Counted from the first letter of the stretch, positions 11,410 to 62,540 are shown. The stretch is 64,000 nt of DNA from an uncultured archaeon (GCA_964430885.1 CAYSHM010000013.1:18283-82282), one strand, 5' to 3'. Notes: generated by a model from the letters alone, not told the origin. Numbers and translations are program-made.

Positions 11410-13578
11410 TTGGTGATAATTATTAATTCAAACGGAAAATCAAAAGGAGGGTCATCCCGGATCCTGCCTATAGTTGTCTTGATCAGTCTGCTTCTAAGTC
11501 TGAGTCTGGCTCTGGCTTCGGAGGTTTTAACAGATAGGTCCGGTAATATGTGCCAGGGCTGCCATGGCAACAGATACAAGGAGTACTGCAACCTCCTGCC
11601 CCATGACGCCGAGAGCGATCTGCCTGCCAGCGCTGATGTGGACCTGACCATAACCATGAAGATGGCTGTAGAGGTGATAAGCACAGGCCAGTCAGGTCCG
11701 AGCAATTATTTCTTGGTGGATGTCCTACGTGTAACCCTGGGCAGTGTTAACGGGAAGGTGAACATTCCAGTTCCCCAGCAGGAGGCTAATAATTTATACC
11801 CTGGTGACCGGTCAGTATTCTCTTGGGATATCACGCCTACTGAAGCTGGGGATGAACAGCTGACTTTTTCCCTGTATGCTCACAATCCCCATAAATCATC
11901 AACCGCATCGGAGCTTTATTACCACGACCTCACCATTATCGGTCAGATGAGTGAACCGAGCTCTCCGCGTTCTTTGGAGCTCAGTGTGGGAAGGATATTT
12001 GCTCATCTGACCTGGGAAACTCCCCTGGATGACGGAGGTGATGATCTAATTAGATTCAATATCTACAGGGGGAACACACCTGGAAACGCAGTTCAATATG
12101 ACACGGTTTCTCCCTTTACACTAGACTATAATGACACCGCTGTTTCACTGGGTGAGAGCTACTATTACCAGGTCAGCGCGGAGAACTCCCAGGGTGAGTC
12201 ACCGTTATCTTCCGAAGTGTCCGGCGAACTTGTTTTCGCACCTTTAAGTCCACGGAACCTTCAGGGTGTGGGCGGGGACAACTATGTTCTGCTGTCATGG
12301 GACGAACCACTGGACGACGGAGGTGCGCATATTACAAGTTATAACCTTTACAGGGGAACTACCGAGAACGGTCTCTCACTGCTGGATTCCTTTGGTCCCT
12401 CAGAGCATTCTATCAACGACACATCTGTGACCAATAGCAATACCTATTATTATCACATTACCTGCGAGAACTCTCAGGGAGAATCCGATCCTGGTAGCAT
12501 CATATCCATTACCCCCGAGAAGGATGTTTCGGTGCCCACCCCGCCCAGGGACCTTACCATAGAATGCGGAGAGGATTTTTGCCTTCTGAAATGGGATGAA
12601 CCCGCTTATGACGGAGGAGCCCCGCTTATATTTTACAAGCTTTACAGGGGGCCGGCGGATGGTGAACGGGAATTACTGATAAATATCGATGAAGTATATC
12701 TGGAATTTAATGATACCTCTGCTTACAGCGGAGTAGAGTATTCCTATCATGTGACCGTCGTGAATTCCGCAGGGGAATCACCACCGAGCACAATGGTAAC
12801 CGGCAAACCCGATGTTGAAGTGAGTCTGCCTTCCCCTCCTGAGAACCTTACCTATACTGAGAGTGATGGGTATGTTCATATATATTGGGAACCTCCGGCC
12901 AATTTCGGCGGGGGCCGTTTGATCAGTTTCAATCTCTACAGAGGGGAGGAACTGGCGTCTATCAGATTGTATCGGAATATTCATCCTGACCTTAATGATT
13001 TCAATGATACCAACGTGACCAACGGCAAGGTGTTCAGGTACTATGTCACAGCACTGAACGAGAAATTCGAGAGCGGATCTACCAATATAATCTATACCCT
13101 GCCGGAAGAGGAGGATATTTCTGATGATCCCAAGGACGATCCTAAACCGCAGTTTCCTCCCTCTTTCCTCCTGACCATACCTGATGAAGAAACAATCGAG
13201 ACAGGTCTGAACAACATTGTGCATTTTATGGTGAGGGGCAATGTAACGGCCAATATCACATGGTTTGTCGAGGGTGACGTGTATTCCAAGGGTTCGGAGA
13301 TACTGGAATATCCTACCCTTTTACCAGGCACCTATGATATAGAGGTGGAGCTGGAGAGATACGGACTTACCGCTTCACACTCGTGGAAAATCAAGGTCCT
13401 GTACCGGACACCCGGGAATGATGACAGTAGCAATATTGGCAATGGCGGTTCCCAAGGAGATCCCGAGAGCGGTGGAAGTACTGATTACGGTCTCTTTGCC
13501 GACATGCTCTACATTTTGGGCGGTATAGGATTAATCGTCTTAACAGTGATACTTGTGATCTATTACAGGAGGCAGTAA
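11410..13578 (+). CDS. Membrane-anchored extracellular protein: N-terminal CXXCH haem-c motif followed by four fibronectin-III-like repeats
   Basis: Signal peptide then CQGCH at 11551..11565. Four ~95-aa repeats each with W-x-x-P-x-D/YDGG-x-x-I-x-x-Y-x-L/I-YRG and a terminal Y-Y-x-V-x-A-x-N-x-x-G-E-S (FN3-like). C-terminal TM LYILGGIGLIVLTVILVIYY. Stop TAA abuts the next gene ATG at 13579. Confidence 0.7.
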   Translation: MVIIINSNGKSKGGSSRILPIVVLISLLLSLSLALASEVLTDRSGNMCQGCHGNRYKEYCNLLPHDAESDLPASADVDLTITMKMAVEVISTGQSGPSNYFLVDVLRVTLGSVNGKVNIPVPQQEANNLYPGDRSVFSWDITPTEAGDEQLTFSLYAHNPHKSSTASELYYHDLTIIGQMSEPSSPRSLELSVGRIFAHLTWETPLDDGGDDLIRFNIYRGNTPGNAVQYDTVSPFTLDYNDTAVSLGESYYYQVSAENSQGESPLSSEVSGELVFAPLSPRNLQGVGGDNYVLLSWDEPLDDGGAHITSYNLYRGTTENGLSLLDSFGPSEHSINDTSVTNSNTYYYHITCENSQGESDPGSIISITPEKDVSVPTPPRDLTIECGEDFCLLKWDEPAYDGGAPLIFYKLYRGPADGERELLINIDEVYLEFNDTSAYSGVEYSYHVTVVNSAGESPPSTMVTGKPDVEVSLPSPPENLTYTESDGYVHIYWEPPANFGGGRLISFNLYRGEELASIRLYRNIHPDLNDFNDTNVTNGKVFRYYVTALNEKFESGSTNIIYTLPEEEDISDDPKDDPKPQFPPSFLLTIPDEETIETGLNNIVHFMVRGNVTANITWFVEGDVYSKGSEILEYPTLLPGTYDIEVELERYGLTASHSWKIKVLYRTPGNDDSSNIGNGGSQGDPESGGSTDYGLFADMLYILGGIGLIVLTVILVIYYRRQ

Positions 13579-14907
13579 ATGAAGCGCATACTGGTCCTGG
13601 CCTCCCTCCTGCTTCTCCTTGCTTCCACACTAGCTGCCGGCTATTCCGAGACCCGAAGCAACTGTTATTCATGCCACAGCTCATCTTCGGCTTCAGGCGG
13701 CTACAAATATGTTCTCCCTGAACTTCAGCTCGATGTGCCGGGATTTGTAGAGCCGGATACGGATTTCGTATTGAATATGAAACTACTTTTCTCCGATTAC
13801 GAAATAGAAGAAGCTGAGTTCACCCTGAGTGCCGACGAGGACATGCTGGTCTTTACCGAAGATGTTGTGAAACGTTCAGGTCTATCCAATGGTGATGAGG
13901 TTTCTATAGGGGGTAAGACCAAGGGTCAAGGCGTTGTGGAGATAAAGGTGATCGCAAGGGTAGATGTCTATTATGACCATAATGTCGGCAGTTATGATGA
14001 CAGGGGCACGGAGATACTTGAGAAGACCGCTGTTCTGACAGTCGGAAGTACATCGCTCATTCCCTCTCATTGGTCTATACTCCTTAAAAAGGATCCAGTC
14101 CCGGTTCAATTGAAGGCCAAGGAAGATATTACCGATATTGAAATAACGGCACCTTACGGAGTTCATGTACTACCCCAGACAATTGCCAAGCTGGATTCTG
14201 GAAAGACCGCAGTCATTACCCTGGAAGCCGACAGCAGTTCTAGCATTAATGAAAATATTATTATCACCTGGAATGAAGGAGGCAACCAAAGGGCTTTATC
14301 CATCAATGTGGTTCACAGGGCTTCATCTGGTTCAGGAAGCGACGGCCTTCACTTGATGGGCAGAATAACTGGAATAGCCTCAATATTCCTTCTTTTGGCG
14401 TCACTGATATTCGGGGGGCTCTGGAATTCACGAAATGCACTGAAAAAAATGATGTCAGCCAAAACAAGGATAAAGATTCACTGCGGAATCTCATGGTTCC
14501 TCTTTGCCCTTGCATTATATCACGGGATAATCCTTCTTGTCGGCCCCTATAATTCGCAGATCTGGGAGAGGCCGGTGATAATTGGTGATATTGCAGCCTT
14601 TGGTATGCTGATCGCAGCCCTGTCAGGAGGTTTGATGAAATGGATGATCAGGAAGTTTGGTAGAAAGGCGTGGCGGATCATACATCTGTATTCAACCCTA
14701 GGAGCTCTTGTTCTGGGAACCCTTCACGGCATTCAGATGGGGACTGATACGGATTTCATAAGGGAAACACCCCCCCTTCGGATATTTATCATGGCTGTGG
14801 TTATAATTGGAAGTATTATCTCACTTATAATGCTGCACAGAAGTAATAAGACCAAAAAAGCAGTAACCCCAAGGGGTGATCATAGGGTGAAGTTCAGGTC
14901 AAATTGA
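13579..14907 (+). CDS. Membrane protein with N-terminal CXXCH haem-c motif and C-terminal di-haem cytochrome-b-like 5-TM domain
   Basis: Signal peptide, CYSCH at 13663..13677 in a context paralogous to the upstream gene. C-terminal TMs carry two His pairs with 14-residue spacing (KIH..13..YH and IIH..13..LH) on alternate helices, the classic bis-haem-b arrangement. Confidence 0.65.
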   Translation: MKRILVLASLLLLLASTLAAGYSETRSNCYSCHSSSSASGGYKYVLPELQLDVPGFVEPDTDFVLNMKLLFSDYEIEEAEFTLSADEDMLVFTEDVVKRSGLSNGDEVSIGGKTKGQGVVEIKVIARVDVYYDHNVGSYDDRGTEILEKTAVLTVGSTSLIPSHWSILLKKDPVPVQLKAKEDITDIEITAPYGVHVLPQTIAKLDSGKTAVITLEADSSSSINENIIITWNEGGNQRALSINVVHRASSGSGSDGLHLMGRITGIASIFLLLASLIFGGLWNSRNALKKMMSAKTRIKIHCGISWFLFALALYHGIILLVGPYNSQIWERPVIIGDIAAFGMLIAALSGGLMKWMIRKFGRKAWRIIHLYSTLGALVLGTLHGIQMGTDTDFIRETPPLRIFIMAVVIIGSIISLIMLHRSNKTKKAVTPRGDHRVKFRSN

Positions 14908-14985
14908 TCATCAAATATTCTGAATATAATAGATTGATCAGGTCTATTAATAGAATGGATAACACATAAAGGTTGGATTGGTAAA

Positions 14986-15432
14986 ATGGCACATTCACTG
15001 GATTCGGCAATGATTTACATACACCCGCCCTTGGCCATTATCGGCTATGTTCTTATCCTTCTGAGCACAGTTTTCATTGGCCGGGAACTTTTCCTAAAAA
15101 AGCAATTCAAAGCTACAAAGAAGATCCTCTATACATCCTGGATCATTAACCTTCTGGGTGTAGTTACCGGTGCAATATGGGCACAGTGGGCCTGGGGTTC
15201 ATACTGGTCCTGGGATCCCAAGGAGACGGTGTCTCTCATTATGTTCGTGTTTGTGGTAATAGGACTCCTTTTTTACGAAAACCCCATCTTCAATATCAAA
15301 TGCGACGGAAGCTGCCCGGTACAGAACCATCGGAAACATATCTCGTTTGGACTCCATATAGCTGCAATCATAACGATATTTATCAACATATGGATAACCC
15401 TTGGGAATTTCGGTCTGCATTCATACGGCTGA
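14986..15432 (+). CDS. Minimal WWD-domain haem-handling protein (CcsA/CcmC family-like)
   Basis: 148 aa, 4 TMs. Tryptophan-rich loop [16 protein letters not shown] matches the WGxxWxWDPKE signature of CcsA/ResC/CcmC. Flanking His residues (IHPPLA; [11 protein letters not shown]). Confidence 0.65.
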
Positions 15433-15470: not shown

Positions 15471-16496
15471 ATGTTTAGACGATTTCGAGATATCTGGCAC
15501 CCGGAGAACTATCACGGAACGAAAAATAAAAAAAAATTCTTTGAAGGCTGGTACTTCAAGCTTGTTTCCGCAGATCTAAAGAAAAAATTCGCATTCATAC
15601 CGGGTATATCCCTGTCCCCTGAAGACCCACACTGCTTCATCCAGGTTCTGGAAGGTGGCAGCAGCCAGACCAATTATGTGCGCTATTCCATTGATGAATT
15701 TCAGATAGGCAAAAAATTCGATTTGACCCTGGGTAAGAGCCGTTTCAACATCGACGGCCTGGAGCTGGATATCCTGGATGAGTTCATAACGATCAAGGGT
15801 GTAATTAACTTCAAGGATCAATATAAATGGCCCGGGACCTTCTTTTCACCCGGGGCCATGGGACCCTACCAGTTTGCGCCTTTCATGCAGTGTAACCATG
15901 GCATACTGAGCATGGACCATGTAATAACGGGTAAATTGGCGGTGAATGGGGAGAGCGTGGATTTAACCGGAGGCCGGGGTTACCTCGAAAAGGACTGGGG
16001 CCGGTCATTTCCACGGGCGTGGATATGGTCCCAATGCAATGATTGGGAGTCGCCGGCCCCCACCCCCGATCCCACACCTACGTCGGTGAGTATATCTGTT
16101 GCTACAGTGCCTTGGATGTGGAGCTATTTCACAGGTTTCATTATCGTTGTGATGGCCGGTGGGAAATTCTACAATTTCTCCACCTATGCAGGAGGGAGGA
16201 TAAAACGACTGAGGGTCAGAGATTCCTTGGTCGAGCTTAAGATCGTAAGTAAAGATATCGTTCTGGAAGCAATTCTAATAAAGAGTCGCGGAGGAGAACT
16301 AGCTAGTCCGGTAAAGGGCATGATGGAGGGACGAATAACCGAGAGCCTTGATTCCAGGTGCAGGATCGCCCTTTACAGGCTGAGCAGGAATGGATCGGGG
16401 GAACGGCAGATTATGTTCAGGGGCAAGGGTGACCCGGCAGCCCTGGAAGTTGTGGGAGATATGGATGAGCTGAGGTCTGGATTAGGGTTGAAATAA
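15471..16496 (+). CDS. Tocopherol-cyclase-like protein
   Basis: N-terminal HPENYHGTKNKKKFFEGWYFKL matches the PHSGYH..FFEGWYFK opening of the tocopherol cyclase (VTE1/SXD1) family. Contains a Pro/Thr linker SPAPTPDPTPT. Confidence 0.5.
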   Translation: MFRRFRDIWHPENYHGTKNKKKFFEGWYFKLVSADLKKKFAFIPGISLSPEDPHCFIQVLEGGSSQTNYVRYSIDEFQIGKKFDLTLGKSRFNIDGLELDILDEFITIKGVINFKDQYKWPGTFFSPGAMGPYQFAPFMQCNHGILSMDHVITGKLAVNGESVDLTGGRGYLEKDWGRSFPRAWIWSQCNDWESPAPTPDPTPTSVSISVATVPWMWSYFTGFIIVVMAGGKFYNFSTYAGGRIKRLRVRDSLVELKIVSKDIVLEAILIKSRGGELASPVKGMMEGRITESLDSRCRIALYRLSRNGSGERQIMFRGKGDPAALEVVGDMDELRSGLGLK

Positions 16497-16596: not shown

Positions 16597-18405
16597 TTGA
16601 AGGTGAAATATATGAAGTACATCTGCGAGGTTTGCGCCTACGAACATGAAACGGAAGACGATAATTGGGCCGAATTGGAGGATGGTTTCTCCTGTCCCGT
16701 TTGCGGCTCGCCGAAAAGCTATTTCAAGGTAGTTGTAGAGAGAAAGACCGAAGAAGATGGTACTGAAACCGTATCACAGGAGACCACCTATTTCGAGTGC
16801 ACTGTATGTGCCCACAAGCACGAGGCCCAGCATGGTTTTCTGGACGATGAAGGTGAATTTACCTGTCCGGTATGCCAGTCACCGAAGAACTACTTCACCC
16901 ATTGCGAACCTGTGCTGACCAGTGTGAAGATCGATAAAGGGGATGAGGATTCTAGCTCTGGAAGCTCACAAGGAGTGATTGTGTATGAATGCGAGATCTG
17001 CGGTTATATCGTGAAAGCTGGACCTGACTGGAAGGGTCTGAAGGACGGTTTTTTATGTCCAATTTGCCAGTCCCCTAAATCCTTTTTCAAAGTGAAAAAT
17101 TCTGAGTTGCCCACAATCGCCTTATCGGCATCATCAACATCACCAACACAGACCACTGCCCAAGAAGATACCGGGAAGGAAGCTACTCAGCCCATACCTG
17201 CACCTCCTACATCAACCACAGAGAAATATTTTCTCGATATTAAGATGATGGCGGATTCCGGCAGATCCATAATCGAGCCCATGAGAACCCGTGAGAATGT
17301 GATAGGCTGGGAGGACATACTTATAAAAGGCAGCCAGCTCTACAAACTGCCCCTCCTGGAAGAGGTTTCTGTCAATACTTCCACTGTAATCGGACCAAAG
17401 GCAAAGAAACCCCTTATAATCGAAGCTCCAATATTCATTACACATATGTCATTTGGAGCGCTATCAAGGGAAGCCAAGATAGCCCTGGCCAAGGGTAGCG
17501 CAGCAGTAAAGACCGCAATGTGCTCAGGGGAAGGGGGGATTCTGGAGAAGTCCTTCGATAGTTCCTACAGATATATATTCGAATACGTTCCCAATCTATA
17601 CGGCGTTACCGAGGAGAACCTGAAAAGGGTGGACGCTGTCGAAATAAAATTCGGTCAATCCACCAAACCCGGTATGGGAGGCCATCTGCCGGGGGAGAAG
17701 GTCACAGAGGAGATATCCGAGGTCAGGGGTTTCGCAAAGGGAAAGGATATCATCAGTTCGGCCCATTTCTCGGATATAACAAATAAAGAGGAACTCAAGG
17801 CTAAGGTTGACTGGCTCAGGGAGACCTCAGGAGGAAGGCCCATCGGCATCAAGATCGCAGCAGGCCACATCGAGAAGGACATGGGAATAGCGGTATATGC
17901 AGGTCCCGATTTCATTACCGTGGACGGAAGGCCAGGCGGGACTGGGGCATCAGCCAAATACGTAAAGGCGGCAGCATCAATGCCCACATTATTTGCCCTT
18001 CACAGAGCAAGAAAGTTCCTGGATGAGAGCGGTCATGATGATATTTCACTAATCATGACAGGGGGTTTCAGGGTGTCCCCGGATTACGCCAAGGCCCTGG
18101 CAATGGGAGCGGATGCAGTTGCCATAGGTCAGGCAGCGGTCATGGCCCTAGGATGTTTTCAGCACAGAATATGCCATACAGGAAAATGCCGGGCGGGCAT
18201 CATGACCCAGGATCTGGAATTGCGCAAAAACCTCGTTGTAGATGTGTCGGCAAAAAGGGTGGAGAATTACCTTAAGGTCTGCATCAAGGAACTAAAGGAT
18301 TTCGCACGATTAACAGGCAATGATGATGTGCACTGTATGTCGATAGAGGACCTTATGACAGTCAATTCGGAGATATCGGACCATACGGATATCGAGCACG
18401 TATAG
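16597..18405 (+). CDS. Triple rubredoxin-domain / glutamate-synthase FMN-domain (GltS domain 2-like) fusion protein
   Basis: Three CxxC...CPxCG rubredoxin modules (CEVCAY..CPVCGSP; CTVCAH..CPVCQSP; CEICGY..CPICQSP). A Ser/Thr/Pro linker, then GltB-type motif GQSTKPGMGGHLPGEKV and a TIM-barrel FMN domain. Confidence 0.8.
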   Translation: MKVKYMKYICEVCAYEHETEDDNWAELEDGFSCPVCGSPKSYFKVVVERKTEEDGTETVSQETTYFECTVCAHKHEAQHGFLDDEGEFTCPVCQSPKNYFTHCEPVLTSVKIDKGDEDSSSGSSQGVIVYECEICGYIVKAGPDWKGLKDGFLCPICQSPKSFFKVKNSELPTIALSASSTSPTQTTAQEDTGKEATQPIPAPPTSTTEKYFLDIKMMADSGRSIIEPMRTRENVIGWEDILIKGSQLYKLPLLEEVSVNTSTVIGPKAKKPLIIEAPIFITHMSFGALSREAKIALAKGSAAVKTAMCSGEGGILEKSFDSSYRYIFEYVPNLYGVTEENLKRVDAVEIKFGQSTKPGMGGHLPGEKVTEEISEVRGFAKGKDIISSAHFSDITNKEELKAKVDWLRETSGGRPIGIKIAAGHIEKDMGIAVYAGPDFITVDGRPGGTGASAKYVKAAASMPTLFALHRARKFLDESGHDDISLIMTGGFRVSPDYAKALAMGADAVAIGQAAVMALGCFQHRICHTGKCRAGIMTQDLELRKNLVVDVSAKRVENYLKVCIKELKDFARLTGNDDVHCMSIEDLMTVNSEISDHTDIEHV

Positions 18406-18470
18406 AAATAAAAATGGATAAACGAATCGATGTTAGAGTACGAAATATAACACAAAAAGGAGAAGATAGA

Positions 18471-18992
18471 ATGAGCAAGACCAAAGAAAACCTGAAAGCG
18501 GCCTTTGCGGGAGAATCCCAGGCCCGGAACAAGTATACCTACTATGCAGAGGTTGCGGAGAGAGAAGGATATCATTACATTGCAAAGGTATTTTTAGAGA
18601 CCGCCGAGAACGAGAAACAGCACGCCATGGACCATTTCAAGATGCTGGGAGAGCTTGGGACCACCGAGGATAACCTCAAGGCGGCCATTAGCGGAGAGCA
18701 TTACGAGACCGTGGAGATGTATCCCCAGTTCGCAAAGGATGCCCAGGAGGAAGGAGATATGCTCTCGGCAGCCCTTTTCAGAATGATCGGCAGGGTGGAG
18801 GAGCAGCACAGGGAAAGATACAAAAAATTGTTGGATATGGTTCAGAACGGCACGGTCTTCAAGAGGGACAAACCTATCAGGTGGAAATGCGCAAAATGCG
18901 GCTACATCCACGAGGGAACAGAGCCTCCCATGAAGTGTCCCGCCTGCAAGAATCCCCGGGAGTACTACGAGCCCGATGCACTTGACCTGTAG
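18471..18992 (+). CDS. rbr: Rubrerythrin (ferritin-like di-iron domain + C-terminal rubredoxin domain)
   Basis: MSKTKENLKAAFAGESQARNKYTYYA N-terminus, E..H di-iron motifs, C-terminal CAKCGY..CPACK. Start moved to ATG 18471 preceded by aaaggagaag RBS; ORF track starts at 18414. Confidence 0.9.
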   Translation: MSKTKENLKAAFAGESQARNKYTYYAEVAEREGYHYIAKVFLETAENEKQHAMDHFKMLGELGTTEDNLKAAISGEHYETVEMYPQFAKDAQEEGDMLSAALFRMIGRVEEQHRERYKKLLDMVQNGTVFKRDKPIRWKCAKCGYIHEGTEPPMKCPACKNPREYYEPDALDL

Positions 18993-21341: not shown

Positions 21342-22388
21342 TCATTTTTTCAATGCGGCCCCGCAGCCTTTACAGTGATATTCGGTGCTCTCAACTGAAG
21401 CTTTGCAAACCGGGCATTCAATTCTATCCCCTTCAGCTCTGCTGCCACTTTTCCCTTCTCCTCCGGGTACTGCGATTATTTTCGGAATTCCATCCTCATT
21501 TTCCTCAACATGCACCTTCCACAGTTCACCCCGACTGTATATTAGCGGCAGCAGTTCAGGCGGTAGGTTCAGGGTGCCGTCCATGTTGATGAACACCTCA
21601 CGGTCCTCATGAAGCTCGGTAAGGTCCATATCAACACCGTGCTGGCCGATGAACCTTCCGTCTGAGAGTTCCAGCGACCTGTCGGTGAATGAAGCGATAT
21701 GTTTGGAATGGGTGACCAAAAGGCATGCGGTGTTCAGCTTCTCCCTCAGGCCAGATACTATCTCCATGACCTTTTCAGCATTCTTGTAGTCAAGACTGCC
21801 GGTGGGCTCGTCCATGAGAAGCACTGCGGGATTATTGGCTAGTGCCCTGGCGATGGCCACTCTCTGTCTTTCACCTCCGCTTAGATGACTTGGAAGCGCT
21901 TTCATACGGTCGCTCATACCCAGAAGCTCCATAAGCTCTATTGCCCTCTTCTTTGCTTCCTTTCGTTTCATATTTGAAAAGAGAAGCGTCTGAACTACAT
22001 TTGCCAGGGCGGTTATTGTAGGGATCAGATTTCCCTCCTGGAACACATATCCTACCATCCTCCTTCGGAAATCCGCCCTATCCTTCTCAGGTACTTTTAG
22101 AATATCGTTCCCGTTGTAGTAAACCTCCCCTGCAGAGGGTTCCTGCAGTCCTCCCAGAATACGAAGCAATGTGGACTTCCCAGCTCCTGAGGGTCCGACC
22201 ACCGAAACCAGTTCACCCCGTTTGAGATCAAGACTGAGCCCTCTGAGGGCCACCACATTTGCCGCACCTTCCTTTCCCTTATAAAGGCTGTATATGTTCT
22301 TGGCTTCAAGGACCAGATCTTTTTCTTCAACTTCTTTATTATTTCCGCCCTTTTTGCATTTCCTTTTTGATTTACGCTCGCCTGCCAT
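21342..22388 (-). CDS. ABC transporter ATP-binding protein with C-terminal ~115-aa extension ending in a zinc ribbon
   Basis: Walker A GPSGAGKST, signature LSGGERQRVAIARAL, Walker B LLMDEPT. Tail CPVCK..x13..CKGCG. Start abuts stop of upstream permease (22388/22389). Confidence 0.9.
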   Translation of the reverse strand: MAGERKSKRKCKKGGNNKEVEEKDLVLEAKNIYSLYKGKEGAANVVALRGLSLDLKRGELVSVVGPSGAGKSTLLRILGGLQEPSAGEVYYNGNDILKVPEKDRADFRRRMVGYVFQEGNLIPTITALANVVQTLLFSNMKRKEAKKRAIELMELLGMSDRMKALPSHLSGGERQRVAIARALANNPAVLLMDEPTGSLDYKNAEKVMEIVSGLREKLNTACLLVTHSKHIASFTDRSLELSDGRFIGQHGVDMDLTELHEDREVFINMDGTLNLPPELLPLIYSRGELWKVHVEENEDGIPKIIAVPGGEGKSGSRAEGDRIECPVCKASVESTEYHCKGCGAALKK

Positions 22389-25300
22389 TTAGATCACCCT
22401 CGTTGAAACTGATAGGTCCTGACGCGCTGCGCTTATCGCGCTGAGAGCCACTGCCAGAAGCATGCCTATGAAAGTAGCTGCACCGATCAATATAAGCTGC
22501 AGCCACGGTATGAACACAAGTCTGTCCAGAACTCCTCTTCCCAGAAGTTCACCGATAATATTGAAGAAACCGTTCATGAGGTAGCTGAGACCTATTCCAA
22601 TGGTTATGCCCAGTATCACTGATATCATCATTAGAACTGAGTTTTCGCTAATAGCTATCTTATAGACCTGCCCTCTTGAAGCTCCTATTGTCTGGAGGAC
22701 CGCAAACTCCCGCTGCCGCTTCTTCATTATTATGGAGGAGAACGTGAAGGATATGGTCAGTGCGGCTATCAGAGAAGCGATGAACATCATTGTCAACAGA
22801 CCGGGTATGCCCCAGTTGTTCTTGTTCCCGATATCGTTGATCTCCTTTTGAAGATCGGCCACATTTGTTACGCCCTCCACAACCTCAAGTCTGTCCCCTG
22901 TCTTTGATATGGAGCGCCCTTTGGAAGCTCCCACCAGGTATTTGGTAGATCCAATATCAGCCTCCGGATTATCAATGGTTATGTTGTAGCGAAGGGGCAG
23001 GGTCGAGTCATCAAGAGTAATACTTCCGGTATAGAAACCGGATCCTCCTCCTCCTTCCGAACCTGAAACGCCTGATCCGCCAACGGAACCGTCGTTCAGT
23101 ATAACTTCGCCGTTCTTATTGCCATGGGACCAGACGGCTTTCACAATCCCGTATCTCAAACTCTCACCCAGACTGACATTGAAGTTATAAGCACTTCCTG
23201 CCTCAGCTGCCGGAGGGCTCAGATCGAGTATATGGTTGGGGGCCCAAATATTCCCTACATCCACCCTCTGAAGACCGCTGGAATTGGTGTTGTTATAATA
23301 ATCGGTCAGATAGATCCTGTAAGTGAGGTCTGATGTGCTCATTCCGGGTTCCGTCCATCCCATCCAACCTTCCTGGGCCGGAAACAGGGAAATATTGCCT
23401 CCTTCTTCCCCATGGCTCCAGTTGACACGCACTGATGTGATTCCAGAGCTGGGATCAGCAGTTATGTTGAATACAAAAGGCATCCCCGCCATGGCGCTAT
23501 TTAGGCTGTGGTCCGTGAATACCCTGCCGGGATCAATATTGGCCTGCATCACCTGGACCTCTCCAGGGACACTTAGGTCATGGTCCCTCATGAGCTGCCG
23601 TATAGAGAGAACCAAGGAATGGTCAGCTATCACCGCTTCTTTGCCGATGGCTCCCGGAACATGGTCGAACCTGCCAAGAACTGCCGCCTCCAATCTCTCC
23701 GTGGTGATATTTCCTGTCACAGGGTCCAATCTGGCAGCTTTTATGGTAAGTTTATCTCCACTCCTGGCACCTATGTCCGACGCAAAGGACCTGCCCAGAT
23801 AGATACCGGGAAGTGAATCATCCCGAGCCAGCCTGTCAAGGGCGCTTTCTGCGCTTTCACCCTTGAATGAGTTCTCATGCCACTTTGCAAAACCAGCATT
23901 CTCGGCATCGATTCCGTAAAGGGTAACAGAGGCGCTGTAAATCTCAACTGTGACAGAAGGCAGGGGCATTGCCCTGTCCACACCATCTACTTCTAATAAT
24001 TGTCCTGTATGATCAGTGCTGTTGGAGAATGTCAGCTGAAAATCAGCTCCTATCTGGTACTCCAGTTCCCTGACGCTGAACCGCTCATCGGAATACCCCT
24101 GTATCACCGAAAGGGAAGCAATGGATAGTGTAAGTGCGATTATGAAAACAAGTTTTGCAACCTCTCCCCTTCTTTTCAGACCGCTCTTGATAATTGGTCC
24201 TATATCTCTGAACGTCTTTACTTTCAGCATTACCTTCTCAAGTTTCAGGGCCGCCCATTTTGCGATCACCGGGGCCGAGAAAGCTCCGCCCACCCATAGT
24301 GCGATGGTTCCCAGGAATACGAATAAAAAGGTGTCCCAACCGCTTCCAAGACTGAGTTTGTAACCCGCTATTTCATCTATATCGAAGGCCCTGTCAAGTA
24401 TTACCTTCGCTGCGGATATCACTCCGAAAATCAACAGAATGATGTCGATGTTATGACGTCTGAGGAATCCTTTCTTATTCCATTTCAGCGTCTGCACTGC
24501 TTCACTCACCTGCAGATCTATGAAGGATCTTCCCCTTTTCCTAATGGATATAATGGTTATAAGACCGATTGCCAGTAAGGATATGATAAACGCAGTCATG
24601 TCGAACAAGAGAAAATCACCCAGATATTCAAAGGAGAAATTGAAGTTCATAAAACCAACCGCAGAGCTAATCACCCAGGCGCCGATTACTGCCAAAAGAT
24701 AACCCAGTACCAGCCCCAGGAACAGAAGGAGAAAGGATTCCGTCAGGACCTGTCCGAAAATCTGTTTTCCGTCAGCCCCCTGAACCTTCAGGATACCTAT
24801 CTCCTTCCTTCTCTCCTCAAGGGAAAGCTCCAGACCGTATATCAGAAGGTAGATGGTGAGGACCACAACAGGAACGATGAGAACAACGTCTATGATTATG
24901 ATGGCATAGCGTATGAAACTGGATATTCCCAGTATGAAACCCACATTGTTGCTTCCTCTGAGGTCTTCCCCGCTATCCCTGGTAATGTCGTTAACAAGTC
25001 TATCGATCTGCCCGCTCATGGTCTCGAGATTTCCTGTGCTGAACTCGTCCTTGTCGATCTTTACAGCCAGGGTGAACAATCCGTATTCCTGAAATTTGCT
25101 CATTAGCGTGGAGTTCGTCCCCAGCATTCCGGTTCCGAACATTATGGTCTCGGCACTCATTTCATCGTCCCAGGAAGCCTCCTCCATCTCGTATATACCG
25201 GCAATGGTAACATTCTGGAATCTGTATTCGGTTGTCTCGAAGTCTATGTAGGACAGAAGGGTGATGTTGATCCCTGGAACCACATTTCCCACATCCAGGT

Positions 25301-26108
25301 TCATTCGAAGGGCCATTGACCGGGGGATGACGGTCCTATTCTCTCTACCGGTAAGATCGAAACTTCCCTCTAAACGGTCACCCACAAGCTTATCGTAAAT
25401 CGTGGTGCTCGCAAACTTATCATCTACAAATGAGGGATTGACCACCCCGTCTTCCTCTTCCCATTTTTCAAGTGTCTGTTCAAGTGTATCTCCGTCGACT
25501 CTGGTGATAAGCCGGAAATCAGGGTCTTCCCATAATGTGCTTCCTCCTCCTTTAGTGTAATATCCGTTCCCGCCTGGAACGCCTCCTGTGAAAACCACCG
25601 CAGACTCGACTCTCGGATCATTATTCACCCGAATTGCATATTCTTCAAGCAGGGTTACATTTCCCTCTTCCTCCAGACTGAAGGTCACTTCATAGGGTAT
25701 TCCCCTGACCATGGAATCGTACATCTCATTCTGAAGTACATTGGTATAGATGAATATAGACGAGATGATAAGGGTTCCCAATATAATACCGCTGAGCATG
25801 GCCAAGGTCCTTCTGGGGTTCCTGAAGATGCGGATAATTGCATCCAGAAGGGAGTGAAAGGGTTCCAGAAGGGAACTTCCGGTTACAGGCATCATATTTT
25901 TTCTTCTTCTAGCCTCCACGGAGAGTGCTTTTGCCCTTACATGATTCACGATACCTATTATCAGGAAAACCGCGGCCAATATTGCAGCGATTGAGACAAA
26001 GCATGTGGCCAAACAGAAAGCCGAGGAGAGATAGATGAACAGAACAATGGCCAGGATGAACAGCAGGATGCTGCCGAAGATAGCAGACGACGCTTTCATG
26101 ATATTCAC
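22389..26108 (-). CDS. ABC transporter permease with two FtsX modules and two large ectodomains (tandem MacB/BceB-like), 1239 aa
   Basis: Two FtsX signatures (RRKEIGILKVQGADGKQI; KRQREFAVLQTIGASRGQV), each followed by 3 TMs. ~270-aa and ~380-aa extracytoplasmic inserts. 4-nt overlap with upstream ATPase. Confidence 0.85.
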   Translation of the reverse strand: MNIMKASSAIFGSILLFILAIVLFIYLSSAFCLATCFVSIAAILAAVFLIIGIVNHVRAKALSVEARRRKNMMPVTGSSLLEPFHSLLDAIIRIFRNPRRTLAMLSGIILGTLIISSIFIYTNVLQNEMYDSMVRGIPYEVTFSLEEEGNVTLLEEYAIRVNNDPRVESAVVFTGGVPGGNGYYTKGGGSTLWEDPDFRLITRVDGDTLEQTLEKWEEEDGVVNPSFVDDKFASTTIYDKLVGDRLEGSFDLTGRENRTVIPRSMALRMNLDVGNVVPGINITLLSYIDFETTEYRFQNVTIAGIYEMEEASWDDEMSAETIMFGTGMLGTNSTLMSKFQEYGLFTLAVKIDKDEFSTGNLETMSGQIDRLVNDITRDSGEDLRGSNNVGFILGISSFIRYAIIIIDVVLIVPVVVLTIYLLIYGLELSLEERRKEIGILKVQGADGKQIFGQVLTESFLLLFLGLVLGYLLAVIGAWVISSAVGFMNFNFSFEYLGDFLLFDMTAFIISLLAIGLITIISIRKRGRSFIDLQVSEAVQTLKWNKKGFLRRHNIDIILLIFGVISAAKVILDRAFDIDEIAGYKLSLGSGWDTFLFVFLGTIALWVGGAFSAPVIAKWAALKLEKVMLKVKTFRDIGPIIKSGLKRRGEVAKLVFIIALTLSIASLSVIQGYSDERFSVRELEYQIGADFQLTFSNSTDHTGQLLEVDGVDRAMPLPSVTVEIYSASVTLYGIDAENAGFAKWHENSFKGESAESALDRLARDDSLPGIYLGRSFASDIGARSGDKLTIKAARLDPVTGNITTERLEAAVLGRFDHVPGAIGKEAVIADHSLVLSIRQLMRDHDLSVPGEVQVMQANIDPGRVFTDHSLNSAMAGMPFVFNITADPSSGITSVRVNWSHGEEGGNISLFPAQEGWMGWTEPGMSTSDLTYRIYLTDYYNNTNSSGLQRVDVGNIWAPNHILDLSPPAAEAGSAYNFNVSLGESLRYGIVKAVWSHGNKNGEVILNDGSVGGSGVSGSEGGGGSGFYTGSITLDDSTLPLRYNITIDNPEADIGSTKYLVGASKGRSISKTGDRLEVVEGVTNVADLQKEINDIGNKNNWGIPGLLTMMFIASLIAALTISFTFSSIIMKKRQREFAVLQTIGASRGQVYKIAISENSVLMMISVILGITIGIGLSYLMNGFFNIIGELLGRGVLDRLVFIPWLQLILIGAATFIGMLLAVALSAISAARQDLSVSTRVI

Positions 26109-26821
26109 ACCTCCCCGTCCACGGATTCTCTGAGCTTTCCATTCCTTAGAATATATATCCTTTGGGATGCCTTGGCAAGGTTCACATCATGGGTGACCAT
26201 CAATACCGCTTTACCCTGGGAAGCCAGGTTCTTGAACAGCTCGATTATCTCCAATCCAGACTGGGTGTCAAGGTTTCCTGTTGGTTCATCAGCGACTATC
26301 AGGGGCGGGTCGTTCATGATGGCCCTTGCAACACAGAATCTTTGCTGCTGGCCCCCGGAGAGGCCGTCGGGAAAATGGTCTATCCTGTCTGAAAGTCCCA
26401 GCCGGTTGATTATTTTCATGGCCTTAACACGTACCTCATTGCCGGTTTCCCCCAGAAGATTGGATGGTATCATTACATTTTCCAGTGCGGTCAGGTTGGA
26501 TATCAAGTTGAAATCCTGAAAGATCCAGCCCACATCGTGCCGTCTTACCTCGGTGAGCTGTTTATGCTGCATTCGGCTGATATCCTTGCCGTTCACCTCC
26601 ACGATGCCGCTCGAGGGAGGAATCAACCCGCCGATTATGTTCAGCATTGTAGATTTCCCGCATCCCGAAGGGCCCATGAGAGTTATGAACTCTCCCATTT
26701 TGACCGCAAGGTCGATGCCTTTCAGGACACGGTTCTTTCCGCCTCCGGGTATGGAGAAATACTTTTTCAGGTTCCTGCATCTGACAAGGACCTTCTTTTT
26801 CTTTGCAGTCGACATTTCCAT
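26105..26821 (-). CDS. ABC transporter ATP-binding protein (MacB/LolD-like)
   Basis: [40 protein letters not shown] overlap with permease. Confidence 0.9.
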   Translation of the reverse strand: MEMSTAKKKKVLVRCRNLKKYFSIPGGGKNRVLKGIDLAVKMGEFITLMGPSGCGKSTMLNIIGGLIPPSSGIVEVNGKDISRMQHKQLTEVRRHDVGWIFQDFNLISNLTALENVMIPSNLLGETGNEVRVKAMKIINRLGLSDRIDHFPDGLSGGQQQRFCVARAIMNDPPLIVADEPTGNLDTQSGLEIIELFKNLASQGKAVLMVTHDVNLAKASQRIYILRNGKLRESVDGEV

Positions 26822-28647: not shown

Positions 28648-30807
28648 CTATTTTTCATCGAACAATCCCATCAGGGCAGTACCTGAGATCTTGGTGACGT
28701 ATACCATGCGCCCGGTCTCCACGTCTATTGCTACTGAGAACATGTCGCCCTGCTCCCAGGCGCTTCCTTTCCAGAATATCCATCCGAATCTTGCCGAGGG
28801 CACCACGATACCGGTTATCTGCTGAAGTACCTGGGCCGCCGGAAGCTGGGATGATTCAACTCCTCTGGCTATAGTGATGCTTGAGTCTGATAGGTCTAAA
28901 TCGCCGTTACGGTCAAAGAGCTCATCTCCTGCCATCTCATCTCCTGAGACTATGTCAACAGCCCCTGAAAGGGTAATGCCTTCGTCATCCATCTCCGATC
29001 TTTTCATCCTGGCCCATCCTTCAAGCTTTCCGTAGTCCTTGTCTATCTCGTACACCGAGGAGTAGGGATTCAGGGGATTTATTGACTTGGTAATGTTCTT
29101 TGCCATCCTGGCGGAGTATATGTGTTCAGGCCATTGGAAATCCTCCACTTCGTCCTTATCCTTTCCTTCGTTCTCCTTCTGCCATTCCCCGTAATCCTCA
29201 TAATATGGCTCAAGTTCCTTCTCACTCATGTAATCCGAAAGAGTGATGTTCCAGTAATGGCTGCCTGCGGTTTTCTGCGGGTCCAAGGCGGATAAAGTTG
29301 CATTGTAGGTTGCTTTTGTCACAAAAGAGGTCGGGAATTGCCTTGCAAAATCACCCATGGCTGAACTGTTTTCTACCATGTATTCTAGGGCAGTATCCGG
29401 TGCTATCTGAATGGACTGATCCGGATTTGTAGCTTCATCTAGATCGGCATTTTCGAACATGTAACCGCCTTTTGGTATCATATCCCAATCCTCGTATTCA
29501 CCCTGAGGATGCCGCTCAAGGAATTCTCCAACAGAATTCTCCCAGGATATGGGGCTTGAACCTCTGCTGTAGCCGCTTGTAAGTACCCTGTCCTGTTCAA
29601 TTATGATCCAACCGGTATGGTTCTCGCTGTCCCAGCTTGTATTGGTACGGAGGAATGTCCTGGTGGGATACGGTGTCTTGCTTGAAAGCCATATTGTCTG
29701 GGTATAATCAAGAAAACCCCAGTATTTTCTTGTAATGTTCACTCTGAGAGAAGGTATGCCCTCGACATTTTCCATATCTTCAGCGGACCAGTTGTAGAAA
29801 CCCTGGTCGAGAGCTCCATCATAATTTCCCTGGTAATATACACTGCCGTTGTCTCCCACGGACAGGGCCCGGTCCTTGTAGATCTGGTCTTCTAGAGTAG
29901 GCAGGGTCTCTTCCTCGGGATCTGAATAGGTTCGGACATAACCTTCGTATTCAATTGGAACGGGCACAGTAGCTCTCGGAAGCTGGTCAACAGACATTGT
30001 CCCGCTGTTAACTGCCTTGATCTGTATTCCTCCGGCCAGTTCGGTGTATTCCGAGCGGTCGGCACTGAATGATCCGTCAACCGTGACCTTGCCGGAATCG
30101 GTGGTATCAACAATCACAGTTAGAGCTCCGTCCGCCACCATCCTCTCCTGTACACAGCTGTGGATCTTTCCATATCCCGACTCTGCATTCACCGGTCCGT
30201 AGACCTTGAAATCCCACTGACCGTCGCCGGTTATGGTGTACCTCTCATATTCTCCGCTGCTCTTGTTCTCGGAATAGAGCTCTGCAAAAACCGTGAAATC
30301 ATACCGGTAGTCATCACCTATGTGAAGAGGGGGTTGACGCACGGATAATTCTTCATCTCCGGTATTGTTAATGGGTAGAAGAATGGATGTAAGGGTCAGC
30401 TTGACGGTTGTCCCGGATATTTCAGTGATAAGTACCTGTATGTCGTATATGTCGTCCTTATCAGTATCCACATATTCGGGGATGTCCAGAGTAGCAGTAA
30501 CCTCTACGGGATCGGACTCAATAATTAGAGTTACCTCATCGCCTTCTATATCGGTTATGGTAACCGAATGAGTAACCGCGCCTACGACCATTTCCTCGGT
30601 CTCGCCCAGTTTAATTCCCTCGGAGGTGGAATCCCCCTGCTGGATGGGATCATTATCTCCCGGCCCAGGACCTGGTTTATCGTCATCGTCGTCATCTTGA
30701 AGTTCCCCGTCCTTTTCCCAGACGTTTTCAAATAGGCCGAAATAGACGACGTTGACCAATAGGCTAGCTATACAGATGATGATGATTAGTGTCTTTATCT
30801 TGCTCAT
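28648..30807 (-). CDS. Secreted/N-terminally anchored 719-aa protein, tandem paralog B (unknown function)
   Basis: N-terminal hydrophobic anchor, poly-Asp/Gly-Pro acidic linker. ~75% identical to the 721-aa upstream neighbour along its full length. No recognisable catalytic motif. Confidence 0.7.
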   Translation of the reverse strand: MSKIKTLIIIICIASLLVNVVYFGLFENVWEKDGELQDDDDDDKPGPGPGDNDPIQQGDSTSEGIKLGETEEMVVGAVTHSVTITDIEGDEVTLIIESDPVEVTATLDIPEYVDTDKDDIYDIQVLITEISGTTVKLTLTSILLPINNTGDEELSVRQPPLHIGDDYRYDFTVFAELYSENKSSGEYERYTITGDGQWDFKVYGPVNAESGYGKIHSCVQERMVADGALTVIVDTTDSGKVTVDGSFSADRSEYTELAGGIQIKAVNSGTMSVDQLPRATVPVPIEYEGYVRTYSDPEEETLPTLEDQIYKDRALSVGDNGSVYYQGNYDGALDQGFYNWSAEDMENVEGIPSLRVNITRKYWGFLDYTQTIWLSSKTPYPTRTFLRTNTSWDSENHTGWIIIEQDRVLTSGYSRGSSPISWENSVGEFLERHPQGEYEDWDMIPKGGYMFENADLDEATNPDQSIQIAPDTALEYMVENSSAMGDFARQFPTSFVTKATYNATLSALDPQKTAGSHYWNITLSDYMSEKELEPYYEDYGEWQKENEGKDKDEVEDFQWPEHIYSARMAKNITKSINPLNPYSSVYEIDKDYGKLEGWARMKRSEMDDEGITLSGAVDIVSGDEMAGDELFDRNGDLDLSDSSITIARGVESSQLPAAQVLQQITGIVVPSARFGWIFWKGSAWEQGDMFSVAIDVETGRMVYVTKISGTALMGLFDEK

Positions 30808-59721: not shown

Positions 59722-59930
59722 GGTATTTGTTTTTTTTAAATCTTTTCTTGGTGCTGTTGAAATAAACTATTTTACAAAAAATGAAATTTTTCATTCCTCT
59801 ATTTGTAAGAAAATTGCATATCAATTACACCCCTTCTTGAAGTTATCTTATATACCGCACAACCGTTTAATATTGATGAATATGTTAACAAATTGAAGCG
59901 ATGGTGTTATATTTAACCGAGGTTTTGGCC

Positions 59931-60053
59931 ATGAACAAGAAGGGAGGGATCTATCTCTGCAAGATATGCGGAAACAAAGTGGAGTTGGTTGACTGCGGAG
60001 AGGGTAATCTCGTATGCTGCGGTGAGTGTATGATACTCATCGAGGACGAATGA
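59931..60053 (+). CDS. Desulforedoxin (Dx) small iron-binding protein, 40 aa
   Basis: MNKKGGIYLCKICGNKVELVDCGEGNLVCCGECMILIEDE has the Dx pattern Y-x-C-x-x-CG...LVCCGE. Below the 60-aa cutoff of the ORF track. Confidence 0.7.
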   Translation: MNKKGGIYLCKICGNKVELVDCGEGNLVCCGECMILIEDE

Positions 60054-60117
60054 ATTAATTATTACGGAGTTACTTTCATATGTGTTAAAACTGTAAAAAA
60101 ATTGATAAGGTGATTCA

Positions 60118-60513
60118 ATGAGCGATATAGGAGAATTGTACAAGAGTGCCGACTGGAAAAATGAAAAGCATGTGCCTGCTATAGAGGTTGCCGGGCCCGT
60201 GAAGAAGACCGAGATAGTGACCATAAGCGCTGCTGTGGGCAAGGAGATCGCCCATCCCAATACAACCGGGCATCATATATCCTGGCTGGAGCTGTATTTC
60301 CTCCCGGAGGGAAGCAAGAACCCATACATGCTGAGCCGTTTCGATTTCGTATCCCACGGAGCTTCACCCAGAGGTCCGGATACAAGCGAGGTATATACTG
60401 AGCCTTCTGTTACAGCCAAGGTGAAGCTGGGCGGAAGCGGAAAAGTGATAGCCACGTCCTATTGCAATATCCATGGGCTGTGGACCGGGTCAATGGATCT
60501 GGTTGTGGAATAG
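60118..60513 (+). CDS. sor: Superoxide reductase, neelaredoxin type (1Fe-SOR)
   Basis: KHVPAIEV, AHPNTTGHHISWLELYF, YTEP, SYCNIHGLW are near-identical to characterised archaeal SOR ligand regions (4 His + Cys). Confidence 0.9.
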   Translation: MSDIGELYKSADWKNEKHVPAIEVAGPVKKTEIVTISAAVGKEIAHPNTTGHHISWLELYFLPEGSKNPYMLSRFDFVSHGASPRGPDTSEVYTEPSVTAKVKLGGSGKVIATSYCNIHGLWTGSMDLVVE

Positions 60514-62048: not shown

Positions 62049-62540
62049 GTGATCAAAATGGAAAAGAATAAGGAAACTTTGAAAATAGGCGATCCGGCAC
62101 CGGATTTCTGCCTATCTTCCAGTACCGGCGATGAAGTTTGCTTAAAAGACCTGAAAGGTAAATGGGTAGTACTATATTTCTATCCCAAGGATAATACTCC
62201 CGGATGCACAAAGGAGTCCAAGGAATTCTCTAATAACCTGGAAAAGATCAAAAAAATGGGTTCAGAGGTTTTCGGTATCAGCAAGGATTCAATAAAGAGC
62301 CACTGCAAATTCGCTGAGAAACACTCGCTCATGGTACCTCTTTTATCCGATCTGGAGGTCTCCATGATAAAGGATTACAAGGTCTGGAAACCCAAGAAGA
62401 TGTTCGGCAAGGAATTCTTGGGTGTGGTGAGAGCCACCTACATTATCGGTCCTGATGGTAAGATAGCCCATGTGTGGCCCAAGGTAAAGGTAACAGGTCA
62501 TGTTGAGGATGTAATGGCCAAGCTTCGTGAATTGATGTGA
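62049..62540 (+). CDS. bcp: Peroxiredoxin, Bcp-type (AhpC/TSA family)
   Basis: YFYPKDNTPGCTKE peroxidatic-Cys motif, thioredoxin fold length. Confidence 0.9.
   Translation: MIKMEKNKETLKIGDPAPDFCLSSSTGDEVCLKDLKGKWVVLYFYPKDNTPGCTKESKEFSNNLEKIKKMGSEVFGISKDSIKSHCKFAEKHSLMVPLLSDLEVSMIKDYKVWKPKKMFGKEFLGVVRATYIIGPDGKIAHVWPKVKVTGHVEDVMAKLRELM

Follow-up and report, generated by a model that had tools for sequence, protein, structure and literature searches.

A probable cytochrome c module with a dedicated four-helix WWD partner protein in an uncultured archaeon

Three consecutive genes on one strand of a 64,000-nucleotide stretch of DNA from an uncultured archaeon (GCA_964430885.1, CAYSHM010000013.1:18283-82282; the whole stretch is hereafter called the window) encode two predicted c-type cytochromes, cytochrome 1 and cytochrome 2, and a small membrane protein of the WWD haem-handling family that we call mini-WWD (Table 1). 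An initial annotation, made from the DNA alone, had described the coordinates of these genes, the junction at which the TAA of gene 1 abuts the ATG of gene 2 (cagTAAATGaag, 13576-13581), the gap of 78 nucleotides between the TGA of gene 2 and the start of gene 3, and the motifs within the products, and all of these are as described. The same is true of the order of elements at the head of both cytochromes, a signal peptide and then a single CXXCH: hydrophobic signal segments at residues 18-36 of cytochrome 1 and 4-21 of cytochrome 2 precede CQGCH and CYSCH, respectively. The start of gene 1 is uncertain and may be the TTG at 11410 or, according to another gene caller, the GTG at 11413; a start at 11548 instead would give a product lacking the signal peptide.

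Table 1. The three genes of the module and their predicted features, numbered from the first nucleotide of the window
Feature	Position	Strand	Remarks
Cytochrome 1 (gene 1)	11410..13578	+	722 aa from TTG start
CQGCH, predicted haem c attachment motif of cytochrome 1	11551..11565	+	residues 48-52
N-P-H of cytochrome 1	11884..11892	+	residues 159-161; H161 is the predicted distal haem ligand
Cytochrome 2 (gene 2)	13579..14907	+	442 aa, ATG start, TGA stop
CYSCH, predicted haem c attachment motif of cytochrome 2	13663..13677	+	residues 29-33
H134 (YYDH), second His of cytochrome 2 haem domain	13978..13980	+	invariant in alignments A2 and A3
Membrane domain of cytochrome 2	14341..14850	+	residues 255-424
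H301/H315 and H369/H383 of cytochrome 2	14479-14523; 14683-14727	+	predicted ligands of two haems b
Mini-WWD protein (gene 3)	14986..15432	+	148 aa
IHPP of mini-WWD	15019..15030	+	H13 is the P-His1 equivalent
WWD loop of mini-WWD	15178..15225	+	residues 65-80; nearly invariant in alignment A1
Insert in mini-WWD, helix 3-4 loop	15280..15330	+	17 residues
GLHSYG, C-terminus of mini-WWD	15412..15429	+	H145 is the P-His2 equivalent

The pairing of CXXCH motifs at this locus is not attributable to chance. Given the window's own amino-acid composition, the expectation is 2.5e-6 per position, or ~0.05 occurrences in the ~19,000 residues of the window's 45 gene-like open reading frames (ORFs), and the earlier estimate of a ~0.2% chance of a CXXCH per protein of such size agrees with this figure. 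Exactly two real genes carry the motif, both within their first 52 residues, and both adjoin the only gene in the window that matches PF01578 (Cytochrom_C_asm); with ~0.05 expected and two found, we ruled out a chance origin. A third CXXCH in the window belongs to a 64-residue antisense ORF inside 15471-16496.

The PF01578 match of the mini-WWD protein (62.8 bits, E = 4.6e-17) lies above the gathering score of 29.9 bits and covers profile positions 65-175 of 212. Among the NCBIfam models, the protein reached neither the cut-off of the CcsB equivalog TIGR03144 (48.8 bits against 187.6) nor that of the CcmC model TIGR01191 (44.4 bits against 186), and its 31 bits against CcmF/NrfE were far below cut-off. 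A word-indexed search of 5.8 billion proteins placed it in a family of at least 333 proteins, and each of the 120 relatives listed is 117-148 residues long. In an alignment of 30 family members (A1), H13 of the IHPP motif (30/30) and H145 of GLHS[YF] are invariant and the WWD loop is nearly so; no transmembrane histidine is conserved among these 30 sequences, H13 and H145 being the only conserved histidines. The size of the family and this conservation rule out a gene fragment or pseudogene.

Profile comparisons and modelling place the protein in the same superfamily as the characterised haem-handling proteins. The family profile matched the core of CcmF (6zmq, E = 2.5e-8), Bacteroides CcsBA (25vk, E = 1.1e-7, from P-His1 through to the P-His2 motif GLHSYG) and CcmC (7f02, E = 3.2e-7), as well as the core of Helicobacter CcsBA (7s9y). 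H13 aligned to the P-His1 region of both CcsBA and CcmC, and H145 aligned to GLHSYG of Bacteroides CcsBA and to the P-His2 region of CcmC. The AlphaFold model (predicted local distance difference test, pLDDT, 85) has four long helices at residues 14-37, 42-70, 78-98 and 111-144, and its best fold match is CcmC (7f02_C, TMq 0.60), with the Foldseek E-values weak for so small a helical protein; the earlier description of a WWD protein with four transmembrane segments is thus borne out. Lysines plus arginines number 0 in the N-terminal tail, 6 in loop 1, 1 in the WWD loop, 3 in loop 3 and 0 in the C-terminal tail. Because these counts follow the positive-inside pattern and because natural fusions, described below, place an exported domain at the N-terminus of the protein, a topology with both termini outside and the WWD loop on the outer face is a well-supported prediction. 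The mini-WWD of the window also has a 17-residue insert, containing two Cys and one His, in the loop that joins helices 3 and 4 and is predicted to be cytoplasmic; the insert is lineage-specific, being absent from the other 29 sequences of A1, and model confidence is low there.

Four core transmembrane helices, a WWD domain, P-His1 and P-His2 are the features common to CcsBA, CcmC and CcmF (PMC10663686), and judged by its sequence the mini-WWD protein is this common core and nothing else. All CcsBA proteins possess in addition TM-His1 (in CcsA) and TM-His2 (in CcsB), which are used in haem export, whereas CcmC does not (PMC10663686). Like CcsA and CcsBA (ResC in Bacillus, CcsA in chloroplasts), mini-WWD matches PF01578, has a similar WWD-loop motif and carries its P-His2 in GLHSYG; bacterial CcsA-type proteins are its nearest longer relatives, with 36-43% identity over residues 4-94. 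Unlike CcsA (250-350 residues) and fused CcsBA (700-940 residues), however, the 117-148-residue proteins of this family comprise the last four helices only; they lack TM-His1 and the periplasmic chamber, and they have no CcsB partner, with its TM-His2 and beta cap, in the window or among the neighbours at the other mini-WWD loci. The only histidine in the post-WWD helix of Bacteroides CcsBA is that of LVLHIRF, and the mini-WWD residue aligned to it is not a histidine. In having P-His1, the WWD loop and P-His2 with no transmembrane histidine, mini-WWD is like CcmC, its best structural match, but CcmC is a six-helix protein that has CcmD, CcmAB and the acceptor CcmE as its partners, whereas mini-WWD has four helices and is linked to the cytochrome itself. 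The protein resembles CcsA in its motifs and CcmC in its missing transmembrane histidines.

The initial annotation called the two cytochromes paralogous, a description that holds for their N-terminal ~150 residues but not for the whole proteins. Whole-protein BLASTP between cytochromes 1 and 2 was not significant (E = 1.9), and we rejected paralogy over the full lengths of genes 1 and 2; the homology is confined to the N-terminal domains. For these, we aligned the N-terminal ~170 residues of cytochrome 1 with the corresponding regions of upstream-encoded proteins at other loci (A4) and compared the result with A3, which like A2 is an alignment of the cytochrome 2 family. Comparison of A4 with A3 by hhalign gave a probability of 95% and E = 2.7e-8 over 147 columns, CXXCH pairing with CXXCH and the histidine of the N-x-H motif in the cytochrome 1 family pairing with H134 of cytochrome 2. 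Within A4, N159 and H161 are invariant.

With residues 1-192 of cytochrome 1 as the query, phmmer was run exhaustively against 1.84 billion cluster representatives and matched 88 proteins, almost all of which have the domain at their extreme N-terminus. The initial annotation had left conservation of the CXXCH residues in orthologues to be checked, and they are retained: of the true members, aligned to a hidden Markov model (HMM), 85/85 have the first Cys, 82/85 the second and 85/85 the His. The distal His is found in 83/85, the other two being gaps. The few exceptions to the CXXCH pattern, for the most part variants that still look like haem motifs, include CX4CH, CX5CH, CXCH and one CXXYH, and spacer variants of this motif are known from other cytochromes c. 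In the cytochrome 2 family every member with an N-terminus has a CXXCH. H134 itself falls in a low-confidence loop (residues 134-139) of the cytochrome 2 model, which is free of cofactors.

No Pfam or NCBIfam family matched the haem domain at E <= 0.001, and the only resemblances, all weak, were to the immunoglobulin (Ig)-like families Transglut_C, DUF11, ASH and CARDB. Fold searches with the cytochrome 2 model were dominated by generic Ig-like matches and identified no known cytochrome fold; cytochrome f, which has no sequence similarity to the domain, was one among hundreds of Ig-like fold matches with similar scores and is a lead only. The haem domain appears to be an Ig-like fold of ~150 residues outside all curated families, and on the strength of the conserved motif and distal histidine both proteins are predicted to be c-type cytochromes with one covalent haem each.

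After the haem domain, cytochrome 1 continues with four fn3 repeats (Pfam fn3, 73.3 bits in 4 stretches), a further beta-rich region and a C-terminal anchor, the hydrophobic segment of which spans residues 699-717. Cytochrome 2 continues with a second Ig-like domain and then a five-helix membrane domain. Its AlphaFold model (pLDDT 69.8, predicted template modelling score, pTM, 0.41) has beta sandwiches at residues 48-155 and 160-246 and helices within 255-424, with two H-x13-H pairs, H301/H315 and H369/H383, on the modelled helices 294-321 and 362-386. All four of these histidines are invariant in the cytochrome 2 family and in the cytochrome of locus L001. The earlier reading of gene 2 as encoding a CXXCH surface protein was right about the motif, but it overlooked this multi-helix domain with four invariant histidines in the C-terminal third.

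The membrane domain of cytochrome 2 resembles the di-haem domains of ferric reductases and cytochrome b561, and it is predicted to hold two haems b. Its score against PF01794 (22.6 bits) is below the cut-off of 28, yet the match spans profile positions 1-120 of 121, and four of seven relatives match the same family at E <= 0.01 (best 7.7e-5). A search of PDB sequences with the cytochrome 2 profile returned no match, and fold searches with the model gave no clear confirmation of a ferric-reductase domain. A fusion of a cytochrome c domain with a di-haem-b-like membrane domain describes cytochrome 2 better. Canonical domains of the ferric-reductase and b561 types have six helices; that of cytochrome 2 differs from them in having five helices in the model, in starting outside and in having no flavin or NAD(P)H domain attached. 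It differs likewise from CYBDOM (DOMON plus cytochrome b561), Dcytb and NOX/FRE/MsrQ in that its outer haem is predicted to be covalent and carried on an Ig-like fold, not on DOMON. Relatives of cytochrome 2 (P0132-P0136; L112, 4470-6386) have long, strongly acidic C-terminal tails of 100-200 residues, rich in Asp, Glu and Tyr and predicted to be cytoplasmic, and such a tail is absent from the cytochrome 2 of the window.

Evidence that these genes belong together comes from other genomes. In 12/12 independent mini-WWD loci (the window, L001/L002, L003, L004-L007, L112/L113, L114 and L115-L117) a cytochrome of the same family lies directly upstream on the same strand, and in all 12 the upstream product has a signal peptide, a CXXCH and the ~150-residue Ig-like domain. 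The cytochrome stop and the mini-WWD start often overlap by 4 nucleotides. L004-L007 are from four metagenome-assembled genomes (MAGs) of Bathyarchaeia, including the complete genome CP170178.1. A profile scan of genome contigs with the mini-WWD alignment yielded these four usable Bathyarchaeia loci, the matches listed being mostly bacterial CcsA and CcsBA that share YWSWDPKE, and it does not amount to a taxonomic census. On a thirteenth contig, seen at the protein level and outside the 12/12, a 774-residue Ig-repeat protein is encoded directly upstream.

As for the host of the window, the window lies within a 97.7-kb metagenomic contig that carries archaeal housekeeping genes (proteasome alpha subunit, SBDS, Rrp4 and the Arg-, Leu- and Pro-tRNA synthetases). 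In a single search with the leucyl-tRNA synthetase (LeuRS), the best named relative was 'Candidatus Thermoplasmatota archaeon' (66% identity), and the next named relatives were ANME-2 and Asgard MAGs (~57%). Since the LeuRS is Thermoplasmatota-like and other loci are from Bathyarchaeia, the module occurs in at least two archaeal lineages.

The closest relative of the window, L112 (GCA_964614925.1), has all three genes in the same order, encoding a 789-residue fn3 cytochrome with CIGCH and the architecture of cytochrome 1, a 638-residue homologue of cytochrome 2 and a 131-residue WWD protein. Because the flanks of L112 differ from those of the window, we place the boundaries of the module at the three genes. 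In L001 and L114 there is one cytochrome that combines a haem domain of the cytochrome 1 type with the His-bearing membrane domain. At L001 2046-6518 the cytochrome/mini-WWD pair is just downstream of NiFe hydrogenase genes with HycI, and at L114 1-4845 it is just downstream of an Mbh/Nuo-like set and then a flavodoxin gene; these hydrogenase and complex-I-like neighbours could hint at the electron source.

Linkage was also examined in the reverse direction by scanning metagenome contigs with a Bathyarchaeia-type subset of haem domains (A5), so that the figures apply to that subfamily, and by checking the matches with HMMs. Seventeen loci had enough downstream sequence, and in 14/17 a WWD gene was adjacent to the cytochrome (nine loci, in one of them divergently oriented) or fused to it in frame (five loci). 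The fusions are laid out as a signal peptide, the CXXCH domain, a Pro/Thr linker and the WWD core. Among the 85 cluster representatives there are nine cytochrome::mini-WWD fusions, while five representatives have the His-bearing membrane domain and 33 have a single anchor at their end.

Several individual loci illustrate the range of arrangements. Compact fusions of 376-383 residues, consisting of a signal peptide, CXXCH Ig domain, Pro/Thr linker and mini-WWD, are encoded at L103 641-1768, L105 1962-3092 and L101 368-1516. A longer fusion of 737 residues (L097, 367-2577, plus strand) has the cytochrome N-domain, three Ig-like repeats, the WWD core and a multi-helix domain of ~200 residues with histidines; its WWD core reads WSWEPRE and has no P-His2, and it may be a different functional variant. 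L109 has tandem genes with the cytochrome N-domain (3-1163 and 1147-1431), side-by-side paralogues as in the window.

The genes that usually accompany WWD proteins are missing from the surroundings. The initial annotation had reported that CcsB/ResB and CcmABEF are not in the window, and our Pfam scan of the 64 kb (ORFs of at least 140 residues plus small intergenic ORFs) agrees, finding no ResB/CcsB, CcmD, CcmE, CcmF, CcmH, DsbD/CcdA or haem-synthesis gene. Nor did the genes called around mini-WWD at the other loci that we examined include a canonical biogenesis gene. The ABC/FtsX genes at 21342-26821 are MacB-like and are not kept beside the module in other loci.

Taken together, these data suggest that the three genes probably form a cytochrome c module with a dedicated WWD partner in an uncultured anaerobic archaeon. 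The initial annotation had proposed a cytochrome unit carrying its own maturation factor, and the 12/12 adjacency in at least two archaeal lineages, along with the natural fusions, argues in favor of that proposal. In the scheme we envisage, both cytochromes would be exported via Sec, with the CXXCH just after the signal peptide heading an Ig-like domain that supplies a second histidine. The mini-WWD protein would sit in the membrane with both ends outside and would expose its WWD loop, P-His1 and P-His2 on the outer face, where it would offer haem b to the CXXCH emerging near the membrane surface so that two thioether bonds could form. The resulting haem c would be bis-His, with the distal histidine and that of the CXXCH as its axial ligands. 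Mature cytochrome 2 would be a three-haem wire, its two membrane haems b relaying electrons from the cytoplasmic face outward to haem c. In cytochrome 1, a long stalk of fn3 repeats would carry the haem c at its tip, and the two proteins could jointly donate electrons to partners outside the cell or accept them from there. That haem is bound and its ligation catalysed, which residues are the axial ligands, that b haems are present and which way the electrons flow are all features of this scheme that we infer from sequences and models.

Four considerations weigh against such a module. First, in 3/17 of the cytochrome loci no WWD gene adjoins, although several paralogous cytochromes may share one WWD gene, as they do in the window. 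Second, the family lacks TM-His1 and no CcsB, the supplier of TM-His2, is encoded nearby, which leaves the route of haem supply unexplained. Third, the assignment of the cytochrome 2 membrane domain to the ferric reductases is below the Pfam threshold and has no PDB sequence match, and the cytochrome 2 model is of moderate quality (pLDDT ~70, pTM 0.41). Fourth, an enzyme fused to its one substrate is unusual, and the fusions fit a permanent complex at least as well.

This last point leads to the most serious rival, in which mini-WWD is a permanent haem-binding subunit and membrane anchor rather than, or besides, a maturation enzyme, and a haem b on the outer face is a redox centre beside haem c. 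Such an arrangement would account for the 1:1 natural fusions (5/17 informative loci and 9/85 representatives), for the tight coupling through overlapping stop and start codons and for the WWD core being the sole membrane anchor in the fusions. The cytochromes of the window, however, have anchors of their own, a transmembrane helix in cytochrome 1 and five helices in cytochrome 2, and an outer-face haem with no transmembrane relay would leave the non-fused, anchor-only cytochromes unexplained. There is a precedent of sorts in CcmF, which has itself been called a cytochrome with a stable haem (PMC10663686), but that haem is at the TM-His site, which mini-WWD does not have, and the haem at the WWD domain and P-His residues is in transit in all three characterised members of the family (PMC10663686). 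We consider a permanent subunit unlikely.

It is also conceivable that mini-WWD is one piece of a larger canonical pathway, either CcmC-like or a CcsA with an unlinked CcsB, and that its partners are encoded elsewhere. The window is only 64 kb of a genome, the family has no TM-His export site, so another factor may deliver the haem, and System I is the only archaeal maturation system reported so far (PMC4429474). Set against this are the lack of ResB, CcmE, CcmF, CcmD, CcmH and DsbD in the window, the lack of any of these in the genes called beside mini-WWD at the other loci that we examined, and the nature of the linkage itself, which at every locus concerns the substrate rather than further biogenesis genes; the fusions, moreover, argue for direct action on the substrate. 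We regard a larger pathway as improbable.

That mini-WWD is a sensor or regulator of haem synthesis like HemX/YpjD, or a decayed ccsA fragment, with unrelated CXXCH neighbours, is very improbable and close to refuted: PF01578 does include HemX, a regulator of glutamyl-tRNA reductase that makes no cytochrome (PMC5801465), and only profile positions 65-175 of 212 are covered, but at least 333 family proteins of uniform length retain invariant P-His1, WWD and P-His2, an exported CXXCH neighbour is found in 12/12 loci along with in-frame fusions, and chance would supply just ~0.05 CXXCH per window.

A bolder form of the dedicated-partner reading holds that mini-WWD is a complete one-polypeptide cytochrome c synthase and the sole biogenesis machinery of these Bathyarchaeia and Thermoplasmatota-like archaea. 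We think this possible but on balance doubt it. If it were true, a four-helix core would suffice both to acquire haem, whether through the core itself or from the cell's exterior, and to link this haem to CXXCH; there would be a further minimal maturation system, and c-type cytochromes would extend to archaeal lineages thought to lack them.

The elements of the module are of kinds already known, namely the WWD superfamily, CXXCH cytochromes, di-haem membrane domains and the logic of placing a lyase beside its substrate. For the last of these, Wolinella reportedly has dedicated haem lyases encoded beside the substrate gene, NrfI for CXXCK and CcsA1 for CX15CH, which are said to be full-length CcsBA fusions that act on unusual motifs and coexist with a general lyase. 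The present module is like these in having a WWD-family gene beside the cytochrome gene that it would serve; it differs in that the motif is an ordinary CXXCH and the putative lyase is cut down to its core and is sometimes fused to the substrate. The published comparison of CcsBA, CcmC and CcmF mentions Wolinella CcsBA only as a fused member (PMC10663686). What is new is the bare-core WWD protein with no CcsB nearby and no TM-His site, its occasional fusion to the substrate, and an Ig-like cytochrome domain outside the curated families. Our literature search, which fell short of most subscription journals, turned up no account of a WWD protein with four helices or of this cytochrome family, nor any report of cytochromes c from Bathyarchaeia. 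The trio or pair, at times as a fusion, recurs across many uncultured archaea and appears to be undescribed.

How haem passes across the membrane, and what the minimal needs are for its attachment to CXXCH, are open questions that have been studied in systems that are large (CcsBA) or made of many subunits (CcmA-I). The mini-WWD family appears to be a natural stand-alone version of their common denominator, found beside or fused to one simple substrate, and for this reason it is attractive as a minimal system to reconstitute and to study structurally. The abundant archaea of sediments and peat are usually described as fermenters. Because predicted surface cytochromes are present in Bathyarchaeia and in a Thermoplasmatota-like archaeon, one of these proteins with a putative di-haem domain in the membrane attached to it, such archaea might exchange electrons with their surroundings. 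In a 2015 survey of archaea, cytochromes c were found in few orders, with System I as the only maturation system, and the same survey listed 17 species having single cytochrome c candidates but "little evidence for maturation proteins" (PMC4429474).

The remainder of the window holds several genes that are of interest apart from the module. Next after the mini-WWD gene, at 15471-16496 (plus strand), comes a gene for a tocopherol-cyclase-like protein (PF14249, 66.7 bits); we considered it as a member of the module, but it is not conserved there in L112 and is probably outside. An oxidative-stress set of the strict-anaerobe type (18414-18992, 59901-60513 and 62049-63181) comprises rubrerythrin, an AhpC peroxiredoxin, a nitroreductase and a split desulfoferrodoxin made up of a 50-residue N-domain ORF and a 131-residue SOR domain. 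At 16597-18405 (plus strand) a glutamate-synthase domain of the GltB type (PF01645) follows three rubredoxin-like zinc-ribbon repeats. Finally, tandem paralogues at 28648-30807 and 30872-33037 (both minus strand) encode proteins of 719 and 721 residues that are 73% identical to one another and have an N-terminal membrane segment, an acidic linker and no Pfam match.

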